Shown in pieces: positions 258-56,773 of a DNA stretch of 56,901 bases (its first letter is position 1; every line of letters begins with the position of its first letter). The DNA lies in contig JADLBB010000185.1 of the NCBI GenBank assembly GCA_020848055.1, forward strand, positions 1 to 56,901, in the 5' to 3' direction. Position numbers and translations under genes: made by a program. The stretch is from Chloroflexota bacterium. GTDB taxonomy: Bacteria > Chloroflexota > Limnocylindria > QHBO01. Below the pieces are notes generated by a model, which was not told where the DNA came from, did no database searches, and saw only the letters and a list, made by a program, of their open reading frames with translations.

Positions 258-665
258 ATGACCCAGGACGCCCTACCCCGCGAGCAGACAGCCAGCACTC
301 CGGCGGTGCCACCGAGACCGGTCCGTCGGGTCCCTGCGCGCCGACTCGATGTTCTGCATTTCATTGCCAGCTTTATCGACTCCAATGGCTACCCGCCGAC
401 CATCCGTGAAATCGGCACGGGCTGCACGATTCTATCGACCAGCGTCGTCAATTACCACCTGGACAAGCTGGTCGCCGGCGGCTCGGTCGAGCGCGACGAC
501 TTCACGTCGCGCGGGCTGCGCGTCACCGACCTCGGGTGGGCGCAGCTCGGAATCGCCGTGCCCGGCGCAGAGTGCGGATGCCTCGTGTCGGCGGTTCGTG
601 CCGCAGTCGAGGCCGGCGAGATCCTGCCGGCCGGCGTCTTGGCTGCATACCGGGCGGTGGCCTGA
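258..665 (+). CDS. LexA-type winged-helix DNA-binding protein lacking the S24 peptidase domain (repressor-like)
   Basis: LDVLHFIASFIDSNGYPPTIREIG...STSVVNYHLDKLVAGGSVER...RGLRV matches the LexA N-terminal DNA-binding domain pattern. Only about 45 aa follow it, which is too short for the Ser/Lys autocleavage domain. GGAG lies 7 nt upstream of the ATG. Confidence 0.75.
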   Translation: MTQDALPREQTASTPAVPPRPVRRVPARRLDVLHFIASFIDSNGYPPTIREIGTGCTILSTSVVNYHLDKLVAGGSVERDDFTSRGLRVTDLGWAQLGIAVPGAECGCLVSAVRAAVEAGEILPAGVLAAYRAVA

Positions 666-5000: not shown

Positions 5001-5331
5001 CATCGACTCGACCGAGGAACTCGGCCGGCTTCGGCGCCATCGAGAGATGGTCCTCACCGACGTCAGCCGGGCGCTCGCAGAGACGGCCGAAGCGATCGGC
5101 ATCCTGCGCATGGTGAACAACGACGTCGACCGTATGTACGGCTTGGCCGGACTCAGCCCGAGCGAGCCGGACGCGTTCAAGGCCAGGGCGGGCGAGCTCC
5201 TCGACCAGGTGATCGTCTGGCTCCGCCGGGACCACCACGACGAGCTCGACGCGAGCGCAGAACGGCAGCGCCAGATCGACACCCTGGCCAGGGTCGCACA
5301 GCTCCTGGCCATCCCGACGGGCGAGGCATGA
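4984..5331 (+). CDS. Hypothetical early protein
   Basis: AGGAGG lies 6 nt upstream of the ATG at 4984. 115 aa. Confidence 0.6.
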   Translation: MPQARDIDSTEELGRLRRHREMVLTDVSRALAETAEAIGILRMVNNDVDRMYGLAGLSPSEPDAFKARAGELLDQVIVWLRRDHHDELDASAERQRQIDTLARVAQLLAIPTGEA

Positions 5332-5332
5332 G

Positions 5333-5527
5333 ATGGACGTGACGTCGCCCATGCCAGCGCCCGCAGTGCGTCTCGCAGACGCCGCCCCTCTGCTGCGATC
5401 GGTCTTCGAGTGGCTCGAGGCCCAGCGCGATGAGGCAGACCGGGCAGACCGATCCCATTGGCAAGACCAGATCCACAACCTCGGCGGGGCGATGGCGATC
5501 CTTCGCCTGCCGATCACGGAGGAATGA
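5333..5527 (+). CDS. Hypothetical early protein (64 aa)
   Basis: ORF with a GAGG upstream. Its stop overlaps the next ATG (ATGA). Confidence 0.5.
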   Translation: MDVTSPMPAPAVRLADAAPLLRSVFEWLEAQRDEADRADRSHWQDQIHNLGGAMAILRLPITEE

Positions 5528-6639
5528 CCATGACCATGTTCAAGAAGGCCGAGCGGACGCAGGCCAAGGCACGTGTCGCGCTCATCGGACCCAGTGGCAG
5601 CGGCAAGACCTACACGGCGCTGCGCGTCGCCGCCGGACTCGGGACGCGTATCGCGGTGATCGACACCGAACACGGCTCGGCGAGCAAGTACGCCGGTGTG
5701 CCCGGCCTGCCCGAGTTCGACGTGCTGGAACTCTCGCGCCACCACCCGGACGAGTACATCCAAGCCATCCGCGCAGCGGAGGCCGAGGGCTACGACGTGC
5801 TCATCATCGACAGTCTCAGCCACGCATGGAACGGCCGCGACGGCGCCCTGGAGCTTGTCGACCGCGAGGCGAAGGGCAACCGCGACAACAGCTTCGTCGC
5901 CTGGGCAAAGGTCACGCCGCTGCACACCCGACTGATCGACGCGATCACGGGCGCTCAGGTCCACCTGGTGGCGACGATGCGGGCCAAGACGGAGTACGCC
6001 CTCACCAGGGACGAGAAGAGCGGGAAGATGCGACCGGAGAAGGTCGGCGTCGGGCCGGTCCAGCGCGATGGGATGGAGTACGAGTTCGACTTCGTCGTCG
6101 AGCTGGATGCGACGCACACCGCTCGCATCACCAAGACGCGCTGCGCCTCGCTCGACGGGTGGGTCGAGGAATGCGCTGGCGAGGCGTTCGGCGAGCGCAT
6201 CGCCACTTGGTTGGCTGATGGTGTGCCGGTCCAGCCGACGTCCGGCAAGTGGAGCGCGCTCATCGTCAAGGCCACCGCACCACGCTCTGCGCTGCAGACG
6301 ATGCTGGCGATCTGGCGCGGCGAGCCGAACACACTCATCCGCGCTGCAGCGCTCCTCGAATGCGCCGGCCAGTTCTTGGTGGTCACCACCCGAGCTGCCG
6401 AGATCGCGAACGCGATCGACTGGGCGGAGCAGTCCGAAGACATGCGCGTCGGCACCGAGGTTCTCGCCCTCTGGCGGCGCGCGCTCGACGAGCGGATGGT
6501 GGCGGAGGAGGCAGCGGCGGCATCGGAGCCCGATCTGGCCGAAGCCGCCGGCGACAGCCCGGAGACGTGGCCGTGGGGCGGCGCTGACGAGTCGGACGAG
6601 CTCGAGGCCGAGCGCATGGAGATGGCGGACGCCGAGTAG
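5524..6639 (+). CDS. Sak4-like AAA_24 (RecA-fold) ATPase, recombination/annealing accessory protein
   Basis: Walker A motif IGPSGSGKT and Walker B motif VLIIDSLSH. The overall pattern (VIDTEHG...NSF..W..VT..H..L...I......HLV.T.R.K) is typical of phage AAA_24/Sak4 proteins. An extra acidic C-terminal region of about 160 aa follows. Confidence 0.75.
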   Translation: MTMTMFKKAERTQAKARVALIGPSGSGKTYTALRVAAGLGTRIAVIDTEHGSASKYAGVPGLPEFDVLELSRHHPDEYIQAIRAAEAEGYDVLIIDSLSHAWNGRDGALELVDREAKGNRDNSFVAWAKVTPLHTRLIDAITGAQVHLVATMRAKTEYALTRDEKSGKMRPEKVGVGPVQRDGMEYEFDFVVELDATHTARITKTRCASLDGWVEECAGEAFGERIATWLADGVPVQPTSGKWSALIVKATAPRSALQTMLAIWRGEPNTLIRAAALLECAGQFLVVTTRAAEIANAIDWAEQSEDMRVGTEVLALWRRALDERMVAEEAAAASEPDLAEAAGDSPETWPWGGADESDELEAERMEMADAE

Positions 6640-11140: not shown

Positions 11141-11773
11141 GTGAACGAGCCACAGCCAGCCCCACGCCTTGACCTCGAAGCCCTCGCCCGTGAGATGCGC
11201 GCCGCGTTCGATGGCCAGGCCATCGACATCGTCGACGCCCTGGGCGATCTGCGCGACGCCTGCGGGCAGACCCGCTCGATGGAGATCGTCTGCATCATCT
11301 GGGAGGCAGCGCAGCGCTCCTTCCTCGACGCCGTCGCCGACGCGATGGAGGACAGCGAACCGGATCCGGACGAGGTCTTCGCGTTCGCCGCGCAGCTTCG
11401 GCCGAAGATGCCGATCTCCCGCGACAAGGAAGGGATGATGTCGCTGGAGATCGGGTTCGTCGTCGGCTCCAGCCGCGACCGCGCCGCCGAGCGCTTCGCC
11501 GAACCGCTGCGCCTGGGCCTGTCTGGCCCGCTGTACTGCCGCGTCGTCGTCCAGCCGATCATCAATCAGCCACGCCTCCCGGTGGCGCCGCCCGCCGAGG
11601 CTGCCCCGCCGGACGCGGCGACCGACGTCGACGACCAGCTCACGCTCGACGACGCCGCGAGCGAGTCCGGGATCAGCCTCGTGGAGATCTCGGCTCCCGG
11701 CCACGATCCCGTGCGGATGACGGGACGACAGTTCGATCGCGTGGTCGAGACGATCACGGGAGGAGCGGCGTGA
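11141..11773 (+). CDS. Hypothetical protein (210 aa)
   Basis: ORF with protein-like composition. Its stop overlaps the next GTG. Confidence 0.55.
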   Translation: MNEPQPAPRLDLEALAREMRAAFDGQAIDIVDALGDLRDACGQTRSMEIVCIIWEAAQRSFLDAVADAMEDSEPDPDEVFAFAAQLRPKMPISRDKEGMMSLEIGFVVGSSRDRAAERFAEPLRLGLSGPLYCRVVVQPIINQPRLPVAPPAEAAPPDAATDVDDQLTLDDAASESGISLVEISAPGHDPVRMTGRQFDRVVETITGGAA

Positions 11774-13083
11774 ACGACCAGCCCGTCCACCTCCGCCGGC
11801 TCGACGACCTCAAGATCTGGAGCCAGAACTACAACCGCGGCGACGTGCCCGCCATACGCGCGTCGATCTCCGAATTCGGCATGAACGGCGCCCTGCGCGT
11901 GTGGGAGGACGGCATCGTCATTGCCGGCAACCACGCGCTCCTTGGCCTGCGCGCAATGCGTGACGCCGGCGAATTGCCGCCGACCCACGTCGTCCTCGAC
12001 GCCGACGGCGCCTGGCTGGTCCCGTGCATCGACGTCACCCACCTCGACCGCCGGCGCGCCGAAGCATTCGCCATCGCCGACAATCGCACCGCGGCGCTGG
12101 CGACGCAGGACGACGTCGCGCTCGCGGCGCTGCTGCGCGTCATCGCCGAGGAGGCGCCGGACGCGTTCGAGGCCACCGGCTATGACGACGGCGATCTGAA
12201 CCGCCTGCTGTCCATCCTGCACGCCGGCGAGGAATCCGACGTCGACGCCGAGCCGCGCTTCGACAAAGCCGACGAGCTGCAGGAGAAGTGGAAGGTCGAG
12301 CCCGGTCAGCTGTGGCTGCTCGGCGACCACCGGCTGCTGTGCGGCGACAGCACGAAGCCAGAGGACGTGGCGCGCGTGATGGACGGCCAGCGTGCCCGCC
12401 TGTTCGCCACCGACCCGCCGTACCTCGTGGACTACGACGGCACGAACCATCCGACAAGATGGAACGCTCCCGCCAAGGAGCGCGCCGTCAAGAATAAGGA
12501 GTGGGGCGACGACTACAAGGACTGGGATCGCAGCGACCAGGGCGACGGCCTGTACCGCGGCTTCTACGCCGCCGCCGTCGAGCACGCGATCCTCCCCGAC
12601 GCCGCGTGGTACTGCTGGCACGCTTCGCGGCGCCAGGCCATGCTCGAGGCCATCTGGACGGAGTTCGGCGCGTTCGCGCACCAGCAGATCATCTGGGCGA
12701 AGGATCGCGGCGTCCTCGGTCGCACGTGGTACCGCTTCGCCCACGAGCCGTGCTTCTTCGGCTGGGTGAAGGGCAACAAGCCGCCGCGCGTCGCCGAGGA
12801 TTACCCGACGACCGTCTGGAACTTCCCCACGTCGCGCGTGGGCGAGGACACGGGGCACCCGACGTCCAAGCCCGTCCAGCTCTTCGAGATCCCGATGCTG
12901 CAGCACGCGGCGCCCGGAGAGGTCTGCTACGAGCCGTTCAGCGGATCCGGCAGCCAGATCATCGCGGGCGAGCGCACGGGGAGGCGCGTGTACGCCATCG
13001 AGATCGCGCCGCCGTTCGTCTCCGTCGCCCTCGAGCGCTACCTCGAGGCCACGGGGGTCACGCCCACCCTGGCGGCTGCGTGA
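11770..13083 (+). CDS. ParB-like nuclease domain fused to a beta-class N6A/N4C DNA methyltransferase (orphan)
   Basis: N-terminal ParB/Srx-like region (IAGNHALLGL), the LLCGDS motif, catalytic DPPY (FATDPPY) and a C-terminal SAM motif (YEPFSGSGSQ). No cognate endonuclease is adjacent. Confidence 0.85.
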   Translation: MNDQPVHLRRLDDLKIWSQNYNRGDVPAIRASISEFGMNGALRVWEDGIVIAGNHALLGLRAMRDAGELPPTHVVLDADGAWLVPCIDVTHLDRRRAEAFAIADNRTAALATQDDVALAALLRVIAEEAPDAFEATGYDDGDLNRLLSILHAGEESDVDAEPRFDKADELQEKWKVEPGQLWLLGDHRLLCGDSTKPEDVARVMDGQRARLFATDPPYLVDYDGTNHPTRWNAPAKERAVKNKEWGDDYKDWDRSDQGDGLYRGFYAAAVEHAILPDAAWYCWHASRRQAMLEAIWTEFGAFAHQQIIWAKDRGVLGRTWYRFAHEPCFFGWVKGNKPPRVAEDYPTTVWNFPTSRVGEDTGHPTSKPVQLFEIPMLQHAAPGEVCYEPFSGSGSQIIAGERTGRRVYAIEIAPPFVSVALERYLEATGVTPTLAAA

Positions 13084-13110
13084 CCTCCTCGATCCACCAG
13101 GGGACGACGT

Positions 13111-13139
13111 GGGGGCGGGCTGTCGTCGAGCCCGCCCCC
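13111..13139. terminator. Bidirectional hairpin between convergent genes
   Basis: 11-bp perfect stem gggggcgggct/agcccgccccc with a 7-nt loop. It sits between the methylase stop (13083) and the reverse-strand gene stop (13146). Confidence 0.55.
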
Positions 13140-13145
13140 CGCCTC

Positions 13146-13394
13146 CTATGCCGCTCGGCGCTTGCCCTTGGGCGCCCAGATCTCGGCTGCCCGCTCGAAC
13201 CCCACCCATTGGCCGCTCTCGCCAACACCTCGGTGCGATACAAATCGGCGGGCCACCTCGTTCAGGTCGATCTCGCCCGTCGCGGCTTGAATCAGCAGGG
13301 CTGTCGACATCAGCTGCATGCATCCCAGCGATTCGAGATCCGCGACATCGACATCGGCTTCGTAGCGGTCCAGCATTTCCTGCGTCTTGCTCAT
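13146..13394 (-). CDS. Small hypothetical protein (82 aa) driven by the inverted copy of the repeated promoter
   Basis: AAGGAG lies 6 nt upstream of the ATG at 13394. The protein begins MSKTQEMLDRYEADVDVADLE. The longer 128-aa ORF was rejected. Confidence 0.6.
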   Translation of the reverse strand: MSKTQEMLDRYEADVDVADLESLGCMQLMSTALLIQAATGEIDLNEVARRFVSHRGVGESGQWVGFERAAEIWAPKGKRRAA

Positions 13395-13440
13395 GTTCGT
13401 GCTCCTTGGTGGTGCGCGTCGCGCGCGTTCGTTGTGAACC

Positions 13441-13468
13441 ATATTACTCGGTGTGCGGGCGATATCAA
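13441..13468 (-). promoter_or_regulatory. Repeated phage promoter, copy A (reverse orientation)
   Basis: The reverse complement reads TTGATA-N16-TAATAT. The flanks match the consensus ccTTGCTATCG...ACCGAGCAATATGrAC of copies B-D. Confidence 0.65.
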
Positions 13469-13551
13469 GGGGTGTGCGCGACAAGTTACCCACTTCGTGA
13501 TAGTAATGTTGACGCGCTGTCGGCGTTATCAATCACTTAACATTTACCCAC

Positions 13552-13579
13552 TTGCTATCGTGCCCACACCGAGCAATAT
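13552..13579 (+). promoter_or_regulatory. Repeated phage promoter, copy B
   Basis: TTGCTA-N16-CAATAT within cttgctatcgtgcccacaccgagcaatatgaac. Confidence 0.65.
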
Positions 13580-13626
13580 GAACATCACAACGACCGACGT
13601 TGAATTGCACCCAAGGAGCACGAACG

Positions 13627-13998
13627 ATGACCACGACGCTAATGACAGAGACGCGCGAGATGCAGCTGGACTTCAGGATTCACGACGAGCGGGGCGACAC
13701 GGTTGCCAGCGCCGCAACGCAACTTCGCCTGCCGCGGCTGCTGGTGGACCACTTGCACCCGGAACGCTGGACGGCGGTGCTACGCGCTGCAATCGAAGCC
13801 GGCGCGAGCAACGCCGACTTCAACGACTCCCTTCAGATCAGCCTGGTCTTCACGCTGAGGGTCCCTGGTGGCCACGAGATCGGAGAGGGACACACCCTGA
13901 TCGAGCTGCCCTGGCTGCTCGCGACCTACATCCGGACCGACGCCTGGGGCGAACTTCTCACGAAGGTGATCGAGGACCAGCTGCTCCTGCCAGGGTAG
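13627..13998 (+). CDS. Small hypothetical protein (123 aa), cassette 1
   Basis: AAGGAG lies 8 nt upstream of the ATG. A 14-bp hairpin follows the gene. Confidence 0.65.
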   Translation: MTTTLMTETREMQLDFRIHDERGDTVASAATQLRLPRLLVDHLHPERWTAVLRAAIEAGASNADFNDSLQISLVFTLRVPGGHEIGEGHTLIELPWLLATYIRTDAWGELLTKVIEDQLLLPG

Positions 13999-14013
13999 GA
14001 AGCGACGGCCCAG

Positions 14014-14047
14014 CGGCGGGCGAGGATGAAGTGATCCTCGCCCGCCG
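14014..14047 (+). terminator. Hairpin terminator of cassette 1
   Basis: Perfect 14-bp stem cggcgggcgaggat/atcctcgcccgccg with a 6-nt loop. Confidence 0.55.
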
Positions 14048-14088
14048 ATGGCCGCCAAGCCCTTATCAATCTCTTATCAATTCAGGCC

Positions 14089-14116
14089 TTGCTATCGTCC
14101 CAAAACCGAGCAATAT
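14089..14116 (+). promoter_or_regulatory. Repeated phage promoter, copy C
   Basis: TTGCTA-N16-CAATAT within ccttgctatcgtcccaaaaccgagcaatatggac. Confidence 0.65.
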
Positions 14117-14163
14117 GGACACCAACGAAAGCGCACCGCGCGCGACACGAATGGAGGACGAGA

Positions 14164-14433
14164 ATGCAGACCTTGACCAGCGAGCGATGGCAGGAAGTGT
14201 TCGAGGGGGTGCAGATGGAGATGATCCTGATCGAGGAGAGCCTCGGCCGACTCCGGAAGCTGGTGGACGGAACCGGATACGAGAAGGAAGCCGATGCGAT
14301 CCTCTGGCATCTGGATGCCCTGACCACCACGGACCCGACGCGATTGGAGGCACAACCCGGATTGTGGTCAATCATCGAAGCGATCGGCGGACCGACAGCC
14401 GCATGGATGGCAGAGGCGAACGCGGACGAGTAG
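14164..14433 (+). CDS. Small acidic protein (89 aa), cassette 2; paralog of the cassette 3 protein
   Basis: GGAGG lies 7 nt upstream of the ATG. LTSERWQEV...ESLGRLRKLVDGTGYEKEADA aligns with LPTETWERI...EAIAKIEDALHGTGLARYADA from cassette 3. Confidence 0.65.
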   Translation: MQTLTSERWQEVFEGVQMEMILIEESLGRLRKLVDGTGYEKEADAILWHLDALTTTDPTRLEAQPGLWSIIEAIGGPTAAWMAEANADE

Positions 14434-14447
14434 CAGCCACCGAACCA

Positions 14448-14483
14448 ACCCGCAGGGCGCGACCAATGTGGCGCCCTGCGGGT
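14448..14483 (+). terminator. Hairpin terminator of cassette 2
   Basis: 13-bp stem acccgcagggcgc/gcgccctgcgggt with a 10-nt loop. It is near-identical to the hairpin at 14937. Confidence 0.55.
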
Positions 14484-14564
14484 CGTTCCGGTGGCGAAGA
14501 TCGCGCCCGCCCCCCAGGAAAACGACCGCTCCAAATACGTACCATATGTGGTGACGTACAGGCC

Positions 14565-14592
14565 TTGCTATCGTTCGTAAACCGAGCAATAT
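14565..14592 (+). promoter_or_regulatory. Repeated phage promoter, copy D
   Basis: TTGCTA-N16-CAATAT within ccttgctatcgttcgtaaaccgagcaatatgaac. Confidence 0.65.
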
Positions 14593-14639
14593 GAACGTCA
14601 CGACGCGCACGCGGTGCGCAGCACAAAGGAGCTAGGAAA

Positions 14640-14918
14640 GTGAACCTACCGACGGAGACCTGGGAGCGGATCGCCCTTCTTGAGGAGGCCGCGGACATGG
14701 TTTCGGAGGCCATCGCCAAGATTGAAGATGCGCTGCACGGAACGGGCCTCGCGAGATACGCCGACGCCTACCAGCTCGCCCAGCTCAAGATCCTCGCCTA
14801 CCCGAGTCACGGCTACCTCACACGCGACAAGGGGATCCACCATCTGATCGAGGACCTCAAGCAGGACGAGCGCGAGCAGCGCGAGGAGGAAGTGGACGAG
14901 GAGTACGAACCAGCCTGA
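14640..14918 (+). CDS. Small acidic protein (92 aa), cassette 3; paralog of the cassette 2 protein
   Basis: GTG start with AAGGAG 8 nt upstream. Very acidic C-terminus (DEREQREEEVDEEYEPA). Confidence 0.65.
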   Translation: MNLPTETWERIALLEEAADMVSEAIAKIEDALHGTGLARYADAYQLAQLKILAYPSHGYLTRDKGIHHLIEDLKQDEREQREEEVDEEYEPA

Positions 14919-14936
14919 TCCAGACCTACCGAATCA

Positions 14937-14972
14937 ACCAGCAGGGCGCGACACACGTGGCGCCCTGCTGGT
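14937..14972 (+). terminator. Hairpin terminator of cassette 3
   Basis: 13-bp stem accagcagggcgc/gcgccctgctggt with a 10-nt loop. Confidence 0.55.
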
Positions 14973-15006
14973 CGCTCCGGTGGGCGGCGACCGACGTTGC
15001 GATTGG

Positions 15007-15041
15007 ACACCCCATGCAATCCGGAACACCCCATGCAATCC
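15007..15041 (+). repeat. Tandem 16-bp direct repeat (acaccccatgcaatcc x2, 19-bp register) spanning the terS start
   Basis: Read directly at 15007-15022 and 15026-15041. Confidence 0.8.
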
Positions 15042-15701
15042 CCCGAAGTACGACGGCGGTGCGGCGCGAAGACGCGGGCCGGCAAGCCCTGCAACGCGTG
15101 GGCCGTGTCGGGCCGCGAGCGCTGCCGCATGCACGGCGGCGCGTCGCCGCGTGGCCTGGCCCACCCGTCGACGACGCACGGCGCGTACTCGCGCGCCCTG
15201 CCACAGCGGATCGTCGCCGACTTCGAGGCGGCGCGCACCGACCCGGAGCTCCTCGAACTCCGCAACCAGATCGGCCTGATCGACGCGCGGATCCTCGACG
15301 TCCTGCGGCGTGTGGACACGGGGGAGAGCGGCGCCCGGTGGCGAGAGCTGAACGCGGCGTGGCGCGCGTACCGCGACGCGGTGAAGGCCAAGGACCCGGA
15401 CGCGATGGGGACGGCGCTGGGCAGCGTTGGCCAGGCGATCGACGCGGGCGAGGGCGACTGGCGGGCGTGGCGCGAGGTGGGTTCGCTCGTCGAGCAGCGG
15501 CGTCGGCTGGTCGAGACCGAGCGGCGTCGGCTGGTCGATCTGCGGCAGGTGATTACCAGCGAACAGGTGCTGCTACTCAGCCACGCTTTGCTGAAGGTGG
15601 TGCTTGAGCATGTTCGCGACCAGGGCACCCGCGAGGCCATCGCGGTCGGGTTCCGCGGCATCCTCGACCGCCCTGGAGATGGCGGTCCAAGCGATCGCTG
15701 A
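15033..15701 (+). CDS. terS: Terminase small subunit (zinc-ribbon type), assigned by position
   Basis: It lies immediately upstream of terL and overlaps it. The N-terminal RCGAKTRAGKPCNAWAVSGRERCRMHGG Cys4-type motif is followed by a helical/coiled region. No clear SD, so the start is uncertain (an alternative TTG lies at 14997). Confidence 0.55.
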   Translation: MQSPEVRRRCGAKTRAGKPCNAWAVSGRERCRMHGGASPRGLAHPSTTHGAYSRALPQRIVADFEAARTDPELLELRNQIGLIDARILDVLRRVDTGESGARWRELNAAWRAYRDAVKAKDPDAMGTALGSVGQAIDAGEGDWRAWREVGSLVEQRRRLVETERRRLVDLRQVITSEQVLLLSHALLKVVLEHVRDQGTREAIAVGFRGILDRPGDGGPSDR

Positions 15702-17229
15702 CGGCCTGCTCGGGCGCAGCACGGCGTTCGAACGACCCGCCGTCGTCCCACACGACGGGCCGCAGCACGCGTTCGTCGACAGCGACGCCGACATCGTCGT
15801 GTACGGCGGCGGCGCCGGCGGTGGCAAGACGTGGGGCCTGTTGATGGCGCCGCTGTTCCGCGGCGACGTCGACGTGCCTCGCTTCGGCGCCGTGGTGTTC
15901 CGCCGCACGTACCCGGACATCTTCGCGACCGGAAGCCTCTGGGACGAGGCGCAGATGCACTTCCCGGACCACGGCGCCGTGTTCCGGCAGACACCGCTGC
16001 CGGAGGCGCGCTTCCCGTCCGGCGCGACGATCCGCTTCAGCCACATGGAGCGCGAGGCCGACCGGCTGAACTGGAAGGGCTCGCAGATCCCGTACATCGC
16101 GTTCGACCAGCTGGAGGAGTTCACCGAGGGCCAGTTCTTCTACCTGATGAGCCGCAACCGCTCGACGGCGGGCGTTCGCCCTTACATGCGCGCCACCGTG
16201 AATCCCGACCCCGACAGCTGGGTGAAGCGCCTGCTCGCGCCGTGGGTGGACGAAGAGCACCCTGAGTACCCGTTCCCGCCGGGCGAACTGCGCTGGCTGA
16301 CGCGCGACGAGATCACCGACGACATCGTGTGGGTCGACGCCGCGTGGCGCGATGCCGACGGGCAGCCGGCGCGATCGATCACGTACATCCCGGCGACGAT
16401 CTACGACAACCCGACGCTGCTCACGAACAACCCGGAGTACCTGGCGGCGCTGCGCACGATGCCGCGCGTCGACCGCGCGCGGCTGCTCGACAGCGACTGG
16501 TCCATCCGCGAGGCGGCCGGCTTCATCGACGAGACGTGGTTCGAGATCGTCGACGAGGCGCCGGCCGGCCTCGAGCTCGTCGGCCGGTCCTGGGACATCG
16601 CCGGCACGCAGCAAGGCAAGGGTCGCGGCAAGGGCCGGGATCCGGACTGGACGGCCGGTCCGTTCATCGGCTTCAAGGACGGCGTCTGGTACATCGCCGA
16701 CCTGCACACGACGCGCGGCACGGCCAAGAGCGTCGACGATCTGATGGACCAGGTCGCCGCGCTCGACGGGCCGCTCGTGCCGATCCTCCTGCAGCAGGAC
16801 CCGGGCGAGGCAGGCAAGCGCGCCGTGGCGGCCCACAAGAAGCGCCTCGCCGGCCACGCGGTGCGGTCACGGCCTCCGACCGGCGACAAGGTCCAGCGCG
16901 CCCGCATCCTCGCATCGGCGGCCGAGGCCGGCAACGTGAAGCTGGTGCGCTACTGGCCGGCGCGGCCGGTCGACGACGACGAGCGCCGCGAGTTGCTGGC
17001 CCGCGCGATGGAGTGGATCCGCGCGTTCCTCGCCGAGGTGCGCGGCTTCCCCGACGGCGCGCACGACGACCGGATCGACGCAGTGTCGTGGGGGATGCTG
17101 ATGCTCTCCTTCCCCGACGAGAAGAAGGCCAAGCACAAGCCGATGCCGAAGGGCTTCACGCCCGACCGCTGGTTCAAAGCCGCCGGAAGCGACTGGCTGC
17201 GCGGCGCACCCAAGGGAGGACGATCATGA
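15679..17229 (+). CDS. terL: Terminase large subunit
   Basis: Walker A-like motif VVYGGGAGGGKTWG, a size of about 516 aa, a C-terminal nuclease-like region with acidic motifs (AHDDRIDA), and position upstream of the portal gene. The start is uncertain (alternative at 15604). Confidence 0.8.
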   Translation: MAVQAIADGLLGRSTAFERPAVVPHDGPQHAFVDSDADIVVYGGGAGGGKTWGLLMAPLFRGDVDVPRFGAVVFRRTYPDIFATGSLWDEAQMHFPDHGAVFRQTPLPEARFPSGATIRFSHMEREADRLNWKGSQIPYIAFDQLEEFTEGQFFYLMSRNRSTAGVRPYMRATVNPDPDSWVKRLLAPWVDEEHPEYPFPPGELRWLTRDEITDDIVWVDAAWRDADGQPARSITYIPATIYDNPTLLTNNPEYLAALRTMPRVDRARLLDSDWSIREAAGFIDETWFEIVDEAPAGLELVGRSWDIAGTQQGKGRGKGRDPDWTAGPFIGFKDGVWYIADLHTTRGTAKSVDDLMDQVAALDGPLVPILLQQDPGEAGKRAVAAHKKRLAGHAVRSRPPTGDKVQRARILASAAEAGNVKLVRYWPARPVDDDERRELLARAMEWIRAFLAEVRGFPDGAHDDRIDAVSWGMLMLSFPDEKKAKHKPMPKGFTPDRWFKAAGSDWLRGAPKGGRS

Positions 17230-17522: not shown

Positions 17523-17791
17523 CGGCGGCGAACGGGGCGGGGCAGGCGCCGCGGCAGGGGGAGCCGGCGATGTCGCCGCGGACGCGGGTGGCGATCCTCA
17601 CGGTGCGGCGGGCGTTGATCATGATGGTGAACGCGCTTGGGGAGTTGGTGGGCCAGCCGGCAGTTCGCGTCGAGCTACTACGCCGGCCAACGCGTCGCCT
17701 TCCTAACGACGATCGGGCGACGAGTCAATCAGAATGCCAAGAGTCTAGCCCGGACCGGAGATCACTCCATGAACGCGAGGATAGCTTTTAG
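17519..17791 (+). CDS. Hypothetical protein (90 aa)
   Basis: ATGA coupling with the upstream gene. Its 3' end overlaps the convergent membrane gene by 30 nt. Confidence 0.35.
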   Translation: MTAANGAGQAPRQGEPAMSPRTRVAILTVRRALIMMVNALGELVGQPAVRVELLRRPTRRLPNDDRATSQSECQESSPDRRSLHEREDSF

Positions 17792-18352
17792 TAGCGCCAA
17801 GATCGCGGTCAGAAGGGAAACCATCCCCACGAGAATTCGCGCGAACACCTCCCAGCCACCTGGACGATTCTGGACGACAGCTTCGGCTTGCTCCTCGGGA
17901 TCGGGTGCTGGGGGGTCGCCCGATGGTGGTCGCTTCCACGCAAGGTAAGGCAGGCTACCGATCGCGAACGTGCCTCCAAGTGCGGCGAGAAGCAGCACTG
18001 CCAAACGAACAGCAGGCCGGAACAGTGCGATCTGGTCGGAGTATTCAGCCCAGGCAAGTATTCCTGACGGAAGGAGGAGCGCAAGGCCGACCCCGATGTA
18101 CGAGAGTCCTTCGTTCTTCAAGCTGCGTTCGAGTTCGATGAACGTGCCGACGAAGCTGAAGAACAAGACGACAGCCGTTAGTCCGTAAAGGATGTAGCTC
18201 CACGGGGCACCGAATCCGACATAGGGCGGTGCCGCAATTAGCAGGAGTCCAATCCAAAGCAGGATCCCCGCTACGGCGAACCCCCACGCAGGTGGTGTCT
18301 CTTTGCTGGTAGTGCCTTGAGGCTGCTCTGCGGGCCGCTCATCTTCGGGCAT
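17762..18352 (-). CDS. Polytopic membrane protein, reverse-strand moron between terL and portal
   Basis: Visibly lower GC than its surroundings. Four or more TM helices (WGFAVAGILLWIGLLLIAA, YILYGLTAVVLFFSFVGTFI, YIGVGLALLLPSGILAW, LAVLLLAALGGTFAIGSL, ILVGMVSLLTAILALL). AAAGGAAAG lies upstream of the ATG at 18352 (an alternative start lies at 18418). Confidence 0.7.
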   Translation of the reverse strand: MPEDERPAEQPQGTTSKETPPAWGFAVAGILLWIGLLLIAAPPYVGFGAPWSYILYGLTAVVLFFSFVGTFIELERSLKNEGLSYIGVGLALLLPSGILAWAEYSDQIALFRPAVRLAVLLLAALGGTFAIGSLPYLAWKRPPSGDPPAPDPEEQAEAVVQNRPGGWEVFARILVGMVSLLTAILALLKAILAFME

Positions 18353-18411
18353 CGTCTTTCCTTTCGTGAGCAGCAATGCATACGTCGATGTCGCGGCATG
18401 AGTTTCGGGGG

Positions 18412-18440
18412 TTGACATCGTGCGGCCAGTTCCTTATACT
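18412..18440 (+). promoter_or_regulatory. Near-consensus sigma70 promoter facing the portal/late genes
   Basis: TTGACA-N17-TATACT, read directly. Confidence 0.6.
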
Positions 18441-18446
18441 CGTTAC

Positions 18447-18583
18447 ACCGGTCACGCCTGGTGTCGTCCTTGGCCCAGTCCGTGACCCTCATACAGGGCC
18501 GCACCGGCATACGCCGGCCCCGCCCGCCTCGAAGTAAGGCCGCACCCCCTGGTCCCGCCCGAAACTGGGCGGGCTTTGTCTTT
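18447..18583 (+). ncRNA. Candidate short structured leader/sRNA of about 135 nt (promoter to intrinsic terminator)
   Basis: It lies between the TTGACA/TATACT promoter and a canonical terminator. Internal stems include ggtcacg/cgtgacc and ccggc-atac-gccgg. No ORF with an SD is present. Confidence 0.35.
18554..18583 (+). terminator. Canonical intrinsic terminator just upstream of the portal gene
   Basis: cccgccc-gaaact-gggcggg followed by cTTTgTcTTT. Confidence 0.6.
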
Positions 18584-18594
18584 AACCAGGCGGT

Positions 18595-50487: not shown

Positions 50488-53304
50488 ATGACCCCCCAAC
50501 AATTCGTCGCCACCTGGAAGAACGTCACCCAGACCGAGCGCGCCACGTCGCAGACGCACTTCAACCATCTCTGCCAGCTGCTCGGCGTCGACGACCCGGT
50601 CACCGGTGACCCGACCGGCCAGACGTACGCATTCGAGCCGGGCGTCCGCAAGTCGAGCGGTGGCCAGGGATGGGCGGACGTCTGGAAGCGTGGGCACTTC
50701 GGGTGGGAGTACAAGGGGCCAGGGCGCGACCTCGAGGCGGCGTACCGCCAGCTGCTCAACTACAAGGACGCCCTCGAGAACCCGCCGCTGCTGATCGTCA
50801 GCGACATCCAGACGATCATCGTCCGCTCCAACTTCACGAACAGCGTCCAGCGCACTCGCGTGTTCACCGTCGAGGGGATGCTGGACCCGGCCGAACGCGA
50901 CGCGCTGCGTGCCATCTGGACAAACCCCGAGGCGTTCAGGAGCCGACGGACCACCGAGGCCGTCACACGGGAGGCGGCGACGCAGTTCGCCAAACTCGCC
51001 GACCATCTGCGCGCCAAGGATGTGGCGCCGGACGCGGCCGCCCACTACCTGATCCGGCTGCTGTTCTGCCTCTTCGCCGAAGACATCGGGCTGCTGCCGA
51101 AGAGCCTGTTCACGACGCTGGTGCACAGCGGTCATCGCCAGCCGGAGCGCTTCAACAACCAGCTCCGCACACTCTTCGCGGCGATGAGCACCGGTGGCTA
51201 CTTCGGCGCCGATGACATCCTCCACATCAACGGCCGGCTGTTCGACAGTGCTGCCGTGATCGACCTGGACAGCGACGCCCTGTGGATCCTGAAGGGGGTC
51301 TGCGACCTGGACTGGTCGGCGATCGAACCCGCGATCCTCGGCACGCTGTTCACGCGCTCGCTTGACCCGGCGATGCGCGCCCAGCTCGGCGCGCAGTACA
51401 CGAGCCGTGACGACATCCTGCTCGTCGTCGAGCCGGTGCTCATGGCGCCGCTGCGTCGTCGATGGGCGGAGGTGAAGGCGCAGGCCGAGGCGATCGCGGC
51501 CGAGCGCGACACTGCGCCGGCGGGGAGCGCGCGGACGAAGAAGGATAACCAGCTGCGCGCCGTCCTCGTCGCCTTCGCGCAGGAGCTCGCCCGCATCCGC
51601 GTCCTCGACCCCGCCTGCGGCAGCGGCAACTTCCTCTACGTCGCCCTCCTGTTGCTGCTCGACCTCTGGAAGGAGGTCTCGACCGCCGCTGCGGACTTCG
51701 GGCTGTCACTGCTCATGCCGACCGATGACCAAGCTCCGTCGCCAGCGCAGCTGCACGGCATCGAGATCAACGAGTACGCCCACGAGCTGGCGCAGGTGAC
51801 GATCTGGATCGGCTACATCCAGTGGATGCGCGACAACGGGTTCGGGCGGCCGGGCGAGCCGGTGCTCAAGCCGATCGACACGATCGAGCATCGGGACGCA
51901 ATCCTGGCGTTCGACGCGGAGGGGAGGCCGGTTGAGCCGGAGTGGCCGGCGGTGGATGTGGTCGTCGGGAATCCGCCCTTCCTGGGCACGAAGCTGATGC
52001 GTGCAGGTCTCGGTGATGCCATTGTCGATCGCCTCTTCGAACTGTACGACGGCAAGGTGGCGCGGGAGTCCGACCTCGTCGTCTATTGGTTCCACCGTGC
52101 TCAGCAACTCGTGGCCAGCGGCCGACTCAAGCGCGTGGGTCTGCTTGCCACGAACTCCATCCGAGGAGGCGCGAATCGTCGCGTCATCGAGGACATCAAG
52201 CGAAGTGGCGACATCTTCATGGCATGGAGTGACCGCCCTTGGATTCTGGACGGCGCCGCCGTAAGGGTGTCAATGGTCGGGTTCGACGACGGCTCGGAGC
52301 ACGACCGCAACCTCGACGGCATGTCCGTCTCCGAGATCCACTCCGACTTGACGAGCGGCGGCGCAGATCTGACTCAGGCAGTACGGCTGGTCGAGAACGT
52401 CGGGCTCGCGTTCATGGGCGACACGAAGGGCGGCGCGTTCGACGTCAATGATGTGACTGCGACGGCGATGCTGGCCGCCAAGGGCAACCCAAATGGTCGA
52501 CCAAACAGCGACGTCGTGCGGCCCTGGGTGAACGGCATGGACCTGACGCGTCGACCGCGGGGGATGTGGATCATCGACTTCGGCATCGATTCCACGCAGG
52601 ACTCTGCATCGGGCTACGAGCGGCCGTTCGAACACGTCGTGTCACACGTGAAGAAAGACCGTGACCGCAATCGTCGCGACGCCTATCGCCTGCGCTGGTG
52701 GCTTCACATGGAGCCTCGTCCAGCGATGCGCCAGGCTCTGGCATTACTACCGCGCTTCATCTGCACGCCTCGGGTGTCAAGCCATCGGGTGTTTGTCTGG
52801 CTGTCCCCACCGACACTCCCAGACAGCGCCACAATAGCCATCGCGCGCGACGATGACTACTTCCTTGGCGTCCTCCACTCCCGCGCCCACGAGCTGTGGT
52901 CGCTCCGCATGGGCACGTGGCTGGGCGTCGGCAATGATCCGCGCTACACGCCGACGACCACGTTCGAGTCGTTCCCCTTCCCCTGGCCCCCCGGCCACGA
53001 GCCGGCCGACGACCACCGCGTCCTCACAATCGCCACCGCCGCCCGCGAGCTCGTCGAGCAGCGCGACCGCTGGCTCAACCCCGATGAAGCCACCGAGGCT
53101 GAGCTGAAGAAGCGGACGCTCACCAACCTGTACAACCAGCGGCCGACGTGGCTTGACCTCGCACACCGGAGGCTAAATGAGGCGGTGCTGGACGCGTTCG
53201 GGTGGCCTCGGGACTTAGGGGACGAGGAGCTGCTGGAGCAACTCTTGGCGCTGAATCTTGATCGGGCGAGTCGATCTGCAGCGACGGACAGGGTCACCAA
53301 GTGA
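50488..53304 (+). CDS. MmeI-family type IIL (IIG) restriction-modification enzyme: N-terminal D-X9-E-X-K nuclease, gamma-class N6A methyltransferase and TRD
   Basis: GWADVWKRGHFGWEYKG gives D64-X9-E74-X-K76. Motif I is VLDPACGSGNFL and motif IV is VVGNPPF. The 938-aa size and domain order match the MmeI family. GGAGG upstream. Confidence 0.75.
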   Translation: MTPQQFVATWKNVTQTERATSQTHFNHLCQLLGVDDPVTGDPTGQTYAFEPGVRKSSGGQGWADVWKRGHFGWEYKGPGRDLEAAYRQLLNYKDALENPPLLIVSDIQTIIVRSNFTNSVQRTRVFTVEGMLDPAERDALRAIWTNPEAFRSRRTTEAVTREAATQFAKLADHLRAKDVAPDAAAHYLIRLLFCLFAEDIGLLPKSLFTTLVHSGHRQPERFNNQLRTLFAAMSTGGYFGADDILHINGRLFDSAAVIDLDSDALWILKGVCDLDWSAIEPAILGTLFTRSLDPAMRAQLGAQYTSRDDILLVVEPVLMAPLRRRWAEVKAQAEAIAAERDTAPAGSARTKKDNQLRAVLVAFAQELARIRVLDPACGSGNFLYVALLLLLDLWKEVSTAAADFGLSLLMPTDDQAPSPAQLHGIEINEYAHELAQVTIWIGYIQWMRDNGFGRPGEPVLKPIDTIEHRDAILAFDAEGRPVEPEWPAVDVVVGNPPFLGTKLMRAGLGDAIVDRLFELYDGKVARESDLVVYWFHRAQQLVASGRLKRVGLLATNSIRGGANRRVIEDIKRSGDIFMAWSDRPWILDGAAVRVSMVGFDDGSEHDRNLDGMSVSEIHSDLTSGGADLTQAVRLVENVGLAFMGDTKGGAFDVNDVTATAMLAAKGNPNGRPNSDVVRPWVNGMDLTRRPRGMWIIDFGIDSTQDSASGYERPFEHVVSHVKKDRDRNRRDAYRLRWWLHMEPRPAMRQALALLPRFICTPRVSSHRVFVWLSPPTLPDSATIAIARDDDYFLGVLHSRAHELWSLRMGTWLGVGNDPRYTPTTTFESFPFPWPPGHEPADDHRVLTIATAARELVEQRDRWLNPDEATEAELKKRTLTNLYNQRPTWLDLAHRRLNEAVLDAFGWPRDLGDEELLEQLLALNLDRASRSAATDRVTK

Positions 53305-55720: not shown

Positions 55721-56773
55721 ATGAACGCGCCGTCGCCTGACTCCACCGTCGCCGCCTACCTCGACTGGTGGGCCTCCACGCACGTCGCGCGCCTGCGCAC
55801 GAACACCCGCGAGAACTACCTGAAGGGCGTCGAACTCTACCGGCCGGAGCTGGGCAGCGTCCTCATGCGTGACCTCGGGCCGCAGCACCTGCAGCGGATT
55901 GTCGACGCCCAGGTCGAGGAAGCGCACTACTGCCCGAACACGATCCGGTTGTTCTTCGGCGTGATCCGCTCCGCCCTGCGCCGCGCGGCCGTCGAACACC
56001 GCCTGCTGGAGTACAACCCCGCACCGATGGTCCGGCTGCCATCACGCAACCCGGTCCGGTCCAAGGCCTTCGGCCGCGACGACGCCGTGGCGTTCATCAA
56101 CGAGGCCCTCGCTCCCGACGGCACGGGCGGGCGCCACTACCACGGCGTCATGCTGACGACGGCCATCAAGACCGGCATGCGCTTCGGCGAGCTGCGCGGC
56201 CTGCGGATCGACAACCTCGAGCTGCGCGACGCGCCGACCGGCAGCCTTGGAGGGATCGTCCGGATCTGTGAGCAGATCGCGTCCAACGTCTCGCGGGCCG
56301 AGTGGAGCGAGCCCAAGACCGTGGCCAGCCACCGCGAGATCCCGGTCTCGCCCGACCTCGCCGGCATCCTGCGGCGCCACCTCGAGCGGCTGGCCATCCA
56401 GCGGCGACGGGTCGGGACTCGGAAGTGGCAGGACAACCAGCTGGTGTTCCCGGCGCTCCGCGGCGGCCTGGTCATGAGCAAGGACCTGGCTTGGGCCAGA
56501 CGCACGATCGCCCTCTCGGCCGGCCTCTCACGGATCCCCACGATGCACTGTCTGCGTCATACCTATGCCACCCAATTGGCTAATGGACGCATCCGCCCTG
56601 AGGCTTTGCAGGAGGTCGTCGGGCACGCCGACATTCGGACCACGATGAACGTCTACTACGACGCGACCGAGGAGACGCTCGAAGAGGTCGCGGCCGCCGT
56701 GGCGGATTGGTCGCGTGAGGGGCTTGACAACAGACCACGCGCCGGATACAATGGACTTCGCCCGAACGGATGA
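55721..56773 (+). CDS. int: Tyrosine integrase
   Basis: N-terminal SAM-like core-binding domain. Catalytic residues are present in order: R (TGMRFGELRGL), K, HCLRH (H-x-x-R), GHADIRTT (H) and NVYYD (Y). Confidence 0.9.
   Translation: MNAPSPDSTVAAYLDWWASTHVARLRTNTRENYLKGVELYRPELGSVLMRDLGPQHLQRIVDAQVEEAHYCPNTIRLFFGVIRSALRRAAVEHRLLEYNPAPMVRLPSRNPVRSKAFGRDDAVAFINEALAPDGTGGRHYHGVMLTTAIKTGMRFGELRGLRIDNLELRDAPTGSLGGIVRICEQIASNVSRAEWSEPKTVASHREIPVSPDLAGILRRHLERLAIQRRRVGTRKWQDNQLVFPALRGGLVMSKDLAWARRTIALSAGLSRIPTMHCLRHTYATQLANGRIRPEALQEVVGHADIRTTMNVYYDATEETLEEVAAAVADWSREGLDNRPRAGYNGLRPNG

Follow-up and report, generated by a model that had tools for sequence, protein, structure and literature searches.

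The window analysed here, a stretch of 56,901 bases, is a complete circular contig whose ends overlap by more than 100 nt and which, from its gene content, looks like the genome of a temperate siphovirus-like phage. In a 1.6-kb locus between the gene of a ParB-domain DNA methyltransferase (11770-13083) and terS, the gene of the small terminase subunit (from 15033), four copies of one promoter-like motif (P_A to P_D) precede four small genes (A to D). The prediction that the four copies represent one class of σ70-type (housekeeping) promoter is strongly supported by sequence comparison. We consider it probable that this class heads compact gene-hairpin units, and that the repeated elements double as recombination homology.

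In the proposed scheme, a unit would consist of a promoter (in some cases with an A+T-rich stretch), a leader of about 40 nt, a strong Shine-Dalgarno (SD) sequence, one small gene and a very stable RNA hairpin. P_A and P_B (P_A and P_C in relatives) would fire divergently, and P_B, P_C and P_D would act in series on the strand that continues into the terminase and late genes. The units would yield small accessory proteins, namely A, B and the acidic, helical paralogs C and D. Their hairpins would mark and protect the 3' ends of transcripts and would damp, not fully block, transcription into the following unit. Finally, the repeated promoter and hairpin sequences would provide homology for recombination by which genes between them are added, removed or swapped. 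We infer the start of transcription at the motifs, the effect of the hairpins on RNA polymerase, the timing of expression and the roles of the proteins.

A repeated promoter-like motif upstream of four small genes

A scan with the pattern TTGCTATCG-N7-ACCGAGCAATATG, in which up to three mismatches were permitted, returned exactly four copies of the motif TTG(C/A)TATCG-N7-ACCGAG(C/T)AATATG in the 56.9-kb circular genome. No match was produced by any of 100 dinucleotide-preserving shuffles, and none is expected by chance. The three plus-strand copies P_B (13552-13580), P_C (14089-14117) and P_D (14565-14593) match the pattern perfectly, and the reverse copy P_A (13440-13468, minus strand; TTGATA, 16-nt spacer, TAATAT) has two mismatches. 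When the motif halves TTGMTATC and CCGAGYAATAT were each scanned alone, they were confined genome-wide to the same four copies. In all copies the −35-like and −10-like hexamers are 16 nt apart, which is within the 16-18 nt of σ70 promoters.

Each copy is oriented toward its small gene, and the end of the −10 hexamer lies 46-47 nt before the start codon at all four copies of the window (47-49 nt in relatives). The start codons at 13394 (A, minus strand), 13627 (B), 14164 (C) and 14640 (D, a GTG) are preceded by the SD sequences AAGGAG (A, B and D) and GGAGGA (C). The sequence-only reading of this DNA had described four copies of one promoter-like motif, one of them inverted, which lie upstream of small open reading frames (ORFs) with strong SD sequences and form one divergent pair and tandem promoter-gene-hairpin units. 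All of this description was borne out.

Repetition extends beyond the motif. In the leader of gene A (13395-13439, minus strand; SD AAGGAG) the segment 13395-13409 (CCAAGGAGCACGAAC) recurs inverted at 13611-13625 in the leader of gene B with 100% complementarity over 15 nt that include the SD sequence, which indicates that the duplicated unit spans the ribosome-binding site in addition to the promoter. An A+T-rich stretch (TTATCAAT...) that resembles an UP element is located upstream of P_B (13525-13551, plus strand), and another A+T-rich stretch, with TTATCAAT twice, upstream of P_C (14063-14088, plus strand). The sequences upstream of P_B and of P_C form a direct repeat of 62 nt with 79% identity, and the stretch at 14063-14088 is 100% conserved in L001 as compared with about 5% difference in the coding flanks. 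Small hairpins in the four 5' leaders were no better than those of shuffled sequence (z 0.0 to −1.5); the D leader shows one compensatory change, which is too little to build on.

Relatives were located by an exhaustive profile search with proteins C and D and by tracing where the closest family members are encoded. The set includes a close relative (L002), a second clade (L003-L013) and two sequences reached through a homolog of gene B (L148 and L149). L147 is a more distant relative in which a divergent A-like (41% identity) and D-like gene pair is still present. Gene order in L002 and in L003-L013 matches that of the window: methyltransferase, A (minus strand), C, D, terS and terL, the gene of the large terminase subunit (15604-17229). 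The motif, for which the sequence-only reading had proposed a scan of related phages, was found in L002-L013 at three orthologous places, corresponding to P_A (conserved in all relatives), P_C and P_D. L148 and L149 also keep it, and variation of P_B in these two is limited to spacer positions 15-17.

Comparison of the window with the L003 clade revealed no change at 51 core sites (TTGNTA plus CCGAGNAATAT; the sites include the five letters CCGAG, which are equally invariant) and changes at 14 of 33 sites in the 11 spacer positions (Fisher p 2.6e-7). Invariant hexamers with a free spacer are as expected of a σ70-type promoter. For the genes driven by these promoters synonymous divergence (dS) in the same comparison is 0.7-1.5, so that the control elements stand out as conserved islands among diverged genes. 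The two letters that distinguish the reverse copy fall one in each hexamer (TTGCTA to TTGATA and CAATAT to TAATAT); both changes are toward the σ70 consensus, and both are stable in all relatives. In L147 the −10 place is occupied by GAACAT and CTATAT, in which A2 and T6 are retained and other letters have changed. These two positions are thus common to the −10 hexamers CAATAT, TAATAT, GAACAT and CTATAT of the window, its close relatives and L147. It is the fixed orientation and distance, the invariant hexamers with a free spacer and the retention of A2 and T6 in L147 that lead us to predict promoters, and on these grounds we concur with the earlier assignment.

Extended by the invariant C that precedes TTG, the motif becomes CTTGCT-N17-CAATAT (CTTGAT-N17-TAATAT in the reverse copy). 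This agrees at 9 of 12 positions, with equal spacing, with the alphaproteobacterial σ70 consensus CTTGAC-N17-CTATAT (as cited in PMC2873474), and CTATAT itself is found at the −10 place of L147. The match is partial, would fit other bacteria too and refers to a consensus that may not be that of the host; moreover, the invariant CCGAG lies outside it. We take the agreement as a hint about the host, not as proof.

A very improbable alternative is that the motif copies are not promoters and make up a binding array for a packaging or partition protein, either TerS or the ParB-domain methyltransferase. Both genes are neighbours of the locus, and conservation of the repeats is tight. However, the copies are locked to genes in orientation and distance (46-49 nt), their conserved and free positions follow the pattern of two hexamers plus a spacer, and the −10 place of L147 keeps A2 and T6 while other letters change. 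In addition, a tandem repeat at the start of terS (15004-15041; see below) is a better candidate for a packaging site.

Gene-end hairpins and the path into terS

The three plus-strand genes are followed by hairpins at 14006-14054 (B; −43.3 kcal/mol, z −6.3; perfect 14-bp core stem at 14014-14047), 14436-14495 (C; −51.0 kcal/mol, z −8.1; 25 pairs and a conserved G·G mismatch) and 14925-14984 (D; −45.7 kcal/mol, z −6.0), the last being of the same family as the C hairpin. A GC-rich hairpin lies between the converging methyltransferase gene and gene A (13103-13140; minus-strand fold −36.8 kcal/mol, z −3.7), and relatives retain a hairpin with different loop and stem letters at this place. The C and D hairpins are 88% identical over 56 nt, and their family is limited to these two places. 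Ten distinct copies of the C/D hairpin from the window and its relatives were aligned to the 25-pair structure. In this alignment 98% of the cells are paired, three pairs show compensatory changes, and nine cells are G·U, which equal A·C mismatches on the opposite strand. The compensatory changes and the plus-strand-only G·U pairs indicate that the object of selection is the plus-strand RNA and not a DNA palindrome.

A U-tract, which is a feature of intrinsic terminators, is missing after all four hairpins (on both strands in the case of 13103-13140). The hairpins noted in the sequence-only reading are real, very stable and, for C and D, nearly identical; a role as terminators is doubtful. Hairpin D ends 48 nt before the start codon of terS. 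These 48 nt contain neither a promoter-like site nor a −10 hexamer placed for a leaderless start of terS, so that the late operon probably receives transcription through the hairpins. As judged from sequence, the cassette hairpins may be attenuators or stabilisers rather than full terminators.

The start of terS is marked by a tandem repeat of a 19-nt unit with the core ACACCCCATGCAATCC (15004-15041, plus strand), the second copy of which holds the start codon at 15033; no clear SD sequence was seen upstream of this codon. Relatives keep both copies. In L002 both have the same altered sequence, GATTGGAACCCCCATGCA, and the ATG of terS again ends the second copy. The repeat could be a packaging (pac) site, a binding site of TerS or a translational operator.

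Alternatively, the tandem promoters and the hairpins without U-tracts might control the late operon of packaging and structural genes. Transcripts that begin at P_B, P_C and P_D would then read through to terS, with C and D in the leader portion of the late mRNA, and the hairpins would act as attenuators that are perhaps overcome by an antitermination factor, in the manner of the PR'-tR' arrangement of phage lambda. All three plus-strand units point into terS, the location immediately before terS is shared by all relatives, and both the 48 nt without promoter-like site or leaderless-start hexamer and the lack of U-tracts are in line with this idea. The core shared by the C and D hairpins, with its invariant G·G mismatch and plus-strand-specific structure, would suit a recognition element. 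On the other hand, no antiterminator was recognised among the scanned proteins, gene A has the same promoter yet points away from the late genes, and the hairpins are extremely stable and located exactly at gene ends, like terminators and 3' stabilisers. Further, a near-consensus promoter with its own terminator before the portal gene (described below) suggests that the late region has other inputs. On balance we regard a late-operon control region as rather doubtful.

The lambda late control region (PR', qut, tR') resembles the locus in that one or more promoters lie directly upstream of packaging and late genes and that a hairpin between promoter and late genes must be traversed. It differs in that a Q-like protein or a pause element was not identified in the window, and that a translated gene lies between each of the three promoters of the window and the hairpin. 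The hairpins are devoid of U-tracts, and the likeness is one of layout only.

Returning to promoters that head separate gene-hairpin units, a number of observations weigh against this explanation. In a scan with the Escherichia coli consensus the reverse copy passes (9 of 12 positions), but the three plus-strand copies fail (7 of 12); the promoter rules of the host may differ from the consensuses used. A search of RNA runs yielded none that carries the phage sequence. The cassette hairpins have no U-tracts, yet the same genome contains a canonical terminator with a U-tract at 18554-18583, which makes termination at the cassette hairpins doubtful. As no promoter was seen in the 48 nt that precede terS, the units may be less than fully independent of the late operon. 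Finally, the hexamers share their invariance with CCGAG just 5' of the −10 hexamer, with the C before TTG and with CAACGA in what would be the start of the transcript. A plain σ70 promoter does not require such extra letters, and a further factor may bind there.

Two conserved blocks flank the promoters. One of them, ACTTACCCACTTCGTGATAG(T/C)AA at 13484-13508, is non-coding and near-invariant in both clades despite diverging flanks, and starts 39-40 bp upstream of the −35 element of P_A in both. Its reverse complement begins with TTGCTATCA (TTACTATCA in the window) and resembles the −35 half of the motif; it is a possible regulator site. The other, ACGTACCATATGTGGTGACGTACAGGCC (14537-14564, plus strand), abuts P_D upstream, is near-invariant across clades and is a possible regulator site or UP-like element. 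Together, the extra invariant letters and the two blocks make a regulator that acts on a private promoter class plausible.

Such a phage regulator, be it an activator, a repressor or an alternative σ factor, would read C-TTGMTATC, CCGAG and CAACGA and would switch the four units jointly, with the solitary TTGCTATCA box upstream of P_A and the block upstream of P_D as further sites. We put this forward tentatively, as a possible supplement to the promoter reading and not as a replacement for it. In both clades every copy has the same CCGAG and flanking letters while the spacer varies, the absence of the motif halves from the rest of the genome marks a private promoter class, both conserved blocks are non-coding, and a LexA DNA-binding domain is present in one phage protein (258-665). 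By contrast, L147 retains CGAG in its A-type copy only and has lost it in the D-type copy, dyad symmetry is gone in the reverse copy, and the P_A leader has a GTTC...GAAC element that relatives do not conserve. Some of the extra identity could also reflect a recent duplication of the promoters and their common descent.

Two specific operators were considered and rejected. The sequence-only reading had suggested that the inverted repeat TTGCT...AGCAA within the motif could double as an operator. This palindrome is lost in the reverse copy, which reads TTGAT and TTACT; the changes on the two arms are non-complementary, stable in all relatives and both directed toward the σ70 consensus. The second candidate was a LexA box (GTTC-N5-GAAC) in the P_A leader, which, as mentioned, relatives do not share.

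The gene at 258-665 (plus strand) codes for a protein of 135 amino acids in which the LexA DNA-binding domain was detected with a Pfam E value of 7.5e-14. It adjoins the gene of tRNA-Met (958-1030) and, across the circle junction, the integrase gene (55721-56773). Its product is a candidate phage repressor.

Gene content and exchange of the cassettes

All four small genes are real and under purifying selection. Ratios of nonsynonymous to synonymous divergence (dN/dS) against close relatives are 0.07 for A, 0.37 for B, about 0.2 for C and about 0.4 for D (overall range 0.07-0.41). Their G+C content is 61.5-64.5% as compared with about 70% for the genome and 72% for terS. Gene A (13146-13394, minus strand; 82 amino acids) belongs to phrog_22970 (PHROG E 6.7e-11), a family without assigned function. 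Its protein is 39-41% identical to those of the A-like genes of L003 and L147, and 36% identity was obtained in the divergence comparison with the L003 clade. Among cultivated phages, Flavobacterium phage FPSV-S2 and Leptolyngbya phage Lsp-JY19 encode homologs that carry the label hypothetical. Gene B (13627-13998, plus strand; 123 amino acids) is an orphan whose relatives are close variants only, with 93% and 81% identity, from within this phage population. No function emerged for any of the four proteins from searches of Pfam, PHROGs, PADLOC and PDB sequences or from Foldseek.

Cassette B is present in the lineage of the window, in L148 and in L149 and absent from L002 and the L003 clade. 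It measures about 576 nt, comprises the A+T-rich stretch, P_B, gene B, its hairpin and the stretch with TTATCAAT twice, which arrived with this segment and now lies upstream of P_C, and takes the position that about 70 nt occupy in L002 and the L003 clade. On the right it ends no more than 4 nt from the −35 element of P_C. Every relative found has genes C and D at this place. In the comparison of the window with L002, identity is 62% for D (dS 0.72) but 91-95% for C and the methyltransferase (dS 0.19-0.26); P_D and hairpin D have hardly changed. A diverged gene D between near-unchanged flanks amounts to allele replacement between the conserved promoter and hairpin. The earlier description of the genes as autonomous is supported by cassette B, a mobile segment that behaves as an insertion or deletion among relatives; with no promoter seen between hairpin D and terS, autonomy may not be complete. 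In distant members of the D family (L144-L146) the gene is packed among small genes and has no promoter or hairpin of its own, which suggests that cassette autonomy is specific to this phage group.

Genes C (14164-14433, plus strand) and D (14640-14918, plus strand, GTG start) code for acidic proteins of 89 and 92 amino acids. C, which is helical, is a divergent paralog of the D family, and D is a three-helix protein with an acidic tail. Isoelectric points (pI) and net charges are 4.25 and −11 for C and 4.49 and −13 for D. BLASTP aligned the two with 27% identity over 52 amino acids (E 5e-4), hhalign matched the C group to the D family, from which C had been left out, with a probability of 94.9% (E 4e-8), and a D-only profile detected C with hmmsearch at 7e-5 and no other ORF of the window. 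The proposal that C and D are acidic paralogs is confirmed by these data. An exhaustive profile search placed both in an unnamed family of small, helical phage proteins with about 47 clusters, a median pI of 4.3, a median net charge of −12 and, commonly, an acidic C-terminal tail. The most conserved residues of the family (A, Y, G-T, H-G-Y-L and R-D) are non-acidic. AlphaFold models of C and D are confident and helical (predicted local distance difference test scores of 86 and 93, respectively).

The sequence-only reading had considered such genes typical of anti-defence or host takeover, for example as DNA mimics. A role of this kind for C and D, and perhaps B, would agree with the acidity of the whole C/D family and its common acidic C-terminal tail, with the small size and the confidently predicted helical folds of C and D, with the faster evolution of B and D relative to their neighbours and the swapped D allele, and with the location of the genes in mobile, separately driven units. 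Strong negative charge, as expected of DNA mimics, is present in both proteins; it is necessary for mimicry, not specific to it, and comparable acidity is common among small phage proteins. C and D had no match in Pfam, PHROGs or a PDB profile search and weak matches only in PADLOC (best E 0.0085). The best Foldseek matches (C against PDB, E 1.5; D against PDB, E 3.4; D against BFVD, E 0.56) offer no link to a known mimic. Similarity in sequence or fold to a known anti-restriction or anti-CRISPR protein was likewise not found. Moreover, the non-acidic conserved residues point to a specific interface rather than a charge pattern, and in comparisons with close relatives none of the four genes has a dN/dS of 1 or more. 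Taken together, these results lend no support to an anti-defence function, which we rate as unlikely.

A composite of these ideas is distinctly unlikely in our judgement. In this composite the private promoters would be read with a phage factor that recognises CCGAG and TTGMTATC, the conserved hairpins with the G·G mismatch and no U-tract would gate the entry of RNA polymerase from three stacked promoters into the packaging and late operon, and C and D would be parts of the switch or a new anti-defence family. If true, the gated hairpins would amount to a late-gene switch of a kind not yet described.

Comparison with known cassettes and further features of the genome

The mobile regulatory cassettes of T4-like phages known as promoter-early stem-loops (PeSLs; Arbiol et al. 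2010, PMC2839356; Comeau et al. 2014, PMC4122927) combine strong σ70-like promoters with stem-loops, have an A+T-rich stretch upstream, flank orphan genes and mediate insertions and deletions by recombination (PMC2839356; PMC4122927). Like them, the locus of the window has σ70-like promoters and stem-loops rich in G+C, both in repeated form though not as one compact motif. It also shares the A+T-rich stretch before the −35 element, an SD sequence and start codon at the 3' edge, and flanked small genes without assigned function in a variable region. Further, insertions, deletions or replacements between relatives end at the repeats, as seen at the right edge of cassette B and for D between P_D and hairpin D. 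The proposed role of PeSL stem-loops, to keep early transcription out of late virion genes, is a likeness as well.

The differences are also clear. PeSLs occur in T4-like myoviruses with about 50 per genome, whereas the phage of the window is temperate, siphovirus-like and high in G+C and has four copies in one 1.6-kb locus. Its repeated parts are a promoter in four copies and a hairpin family in two, in addition to two other hairpins, and promoter and hairpin are separate elements: the hairpins are much longer (up to 25 pairs) and lie 38-70 nt upstream of the next −35 element, whereas the stem-loop of a PeSL overlaps or abuts the promoter boxes. Here promoter activity is a prediction, and terminator activity is doubtful. 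A hyperplastic region of the T4-like kind is not what the window represents, since it has a 56.9-kb circular genome, an integrase, a tape-measure-sized ORF of 1995 amino acids and a non-T4 layout.

A moron is a gene with its own promoter and terminator and a deviant G+C content that is located between genes adjacent in relatives (PMC3594210). The units resemble morons in that a single gene has its own putative promoter and 3' hairpin and in that the G+C content of the four genes differs from the surroundings. Cassette B, and of the four only this one, also sits between sequences that adjoin each other in related phages. Not so C and D, which every relative found has at this place and which hence are not additions; moreover, the reuse of one promoter for four units is outside the moron concept. 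As a whole, the locus is best classified as a few moron-like or PeSL-like cassettes at the junction of early and late genes.

Current views are not overturned by this locus, and the pattern is already known from other phages. It does provide comparatively validated, reusable promoter-gene-hairpin units beyond the T4-like phages in which PeSLs were described, from an uncultivated temperate phage lineage of activated sludge without a close cultivated relative. A promoter-leader module and a family of RNA hairpins for a high-G+C host thereby become available, and four small genes, one of which belongs to the unnamed acidic family of about 47 clusters, stand out as the accessory cargo of the phage group. 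The locus also suggests that phages in general shuffle genes by recombination between control elements that are repeated.

The phage sequence is contained in wastewater and activated-sludge metagenomes. BLAST against cultivated phages (50,697 records) gave no DNA match, and protein matches were distant and from unrelated hosts. No related locus was found by a TerL-based search of GTDB genomes and IMG/VR, exact motif scans of viral, genome and metagenome collections gave zero matches, and a looser motif pattern gave single, chance-like matches only. In addition to the genes already mentioned, the window has a large ORF with portal-protein matches; its tRNA was the sole match in a search of Rfam.

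Two features lie between terL and the portal gene, where the 18-19 kb segment has a lower G+C content (65%). The first is a near-consensus σ70 promoter (TTGACA, 17 nt, TATACT; 11 of 12 positions) within 18412-18594. About 110 nt after it follows the canonical terminator at 18554-18583, which consists of CCCGCCC GAAACT GGGCGGG and then CTTTGTCTTT, and the portal gene starts directly thereafter at 18595. This segment, which has no match in Rfam, looks like a promoter-leader-terminator switch or a small RNA, as far as its letters tell. The second is an ORF of up to 218 amino acids on the minus strand (17762-18418) without match in PADLOC. Its abundant hydrophobic stretches suggest a multi-pass membrane protein, and the gene looks like a moron, perhaps for superinfection exclusion. 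In L011 a gene with a SocA_Panacea (antitoxin-type) domain (5110-5550) is found between the terminase genes and a gene of about 912 amino acids in the position of the portal gene. As this is where the window has the membrane-protein ORF, the slot is another variable region.

Elsewhere in the window, a gene at 50488-53304 (plus strand) codes for a fused restriction-modification enzyme resembling MmeI, with N-terminal, helicase-spacer, methyltransferase and target-recognition domains; it is located in an accessory region of lower G+C content (46-54 kb, 54-65% G+C). Among the relatives, the large terminase of L005 (4561-7263; JGI 3300010051) was called as a product of 900 amino acids with a LAGLIDADG_3 domain, which suggests that its terL carries an inserted intein or homing endonuclease.

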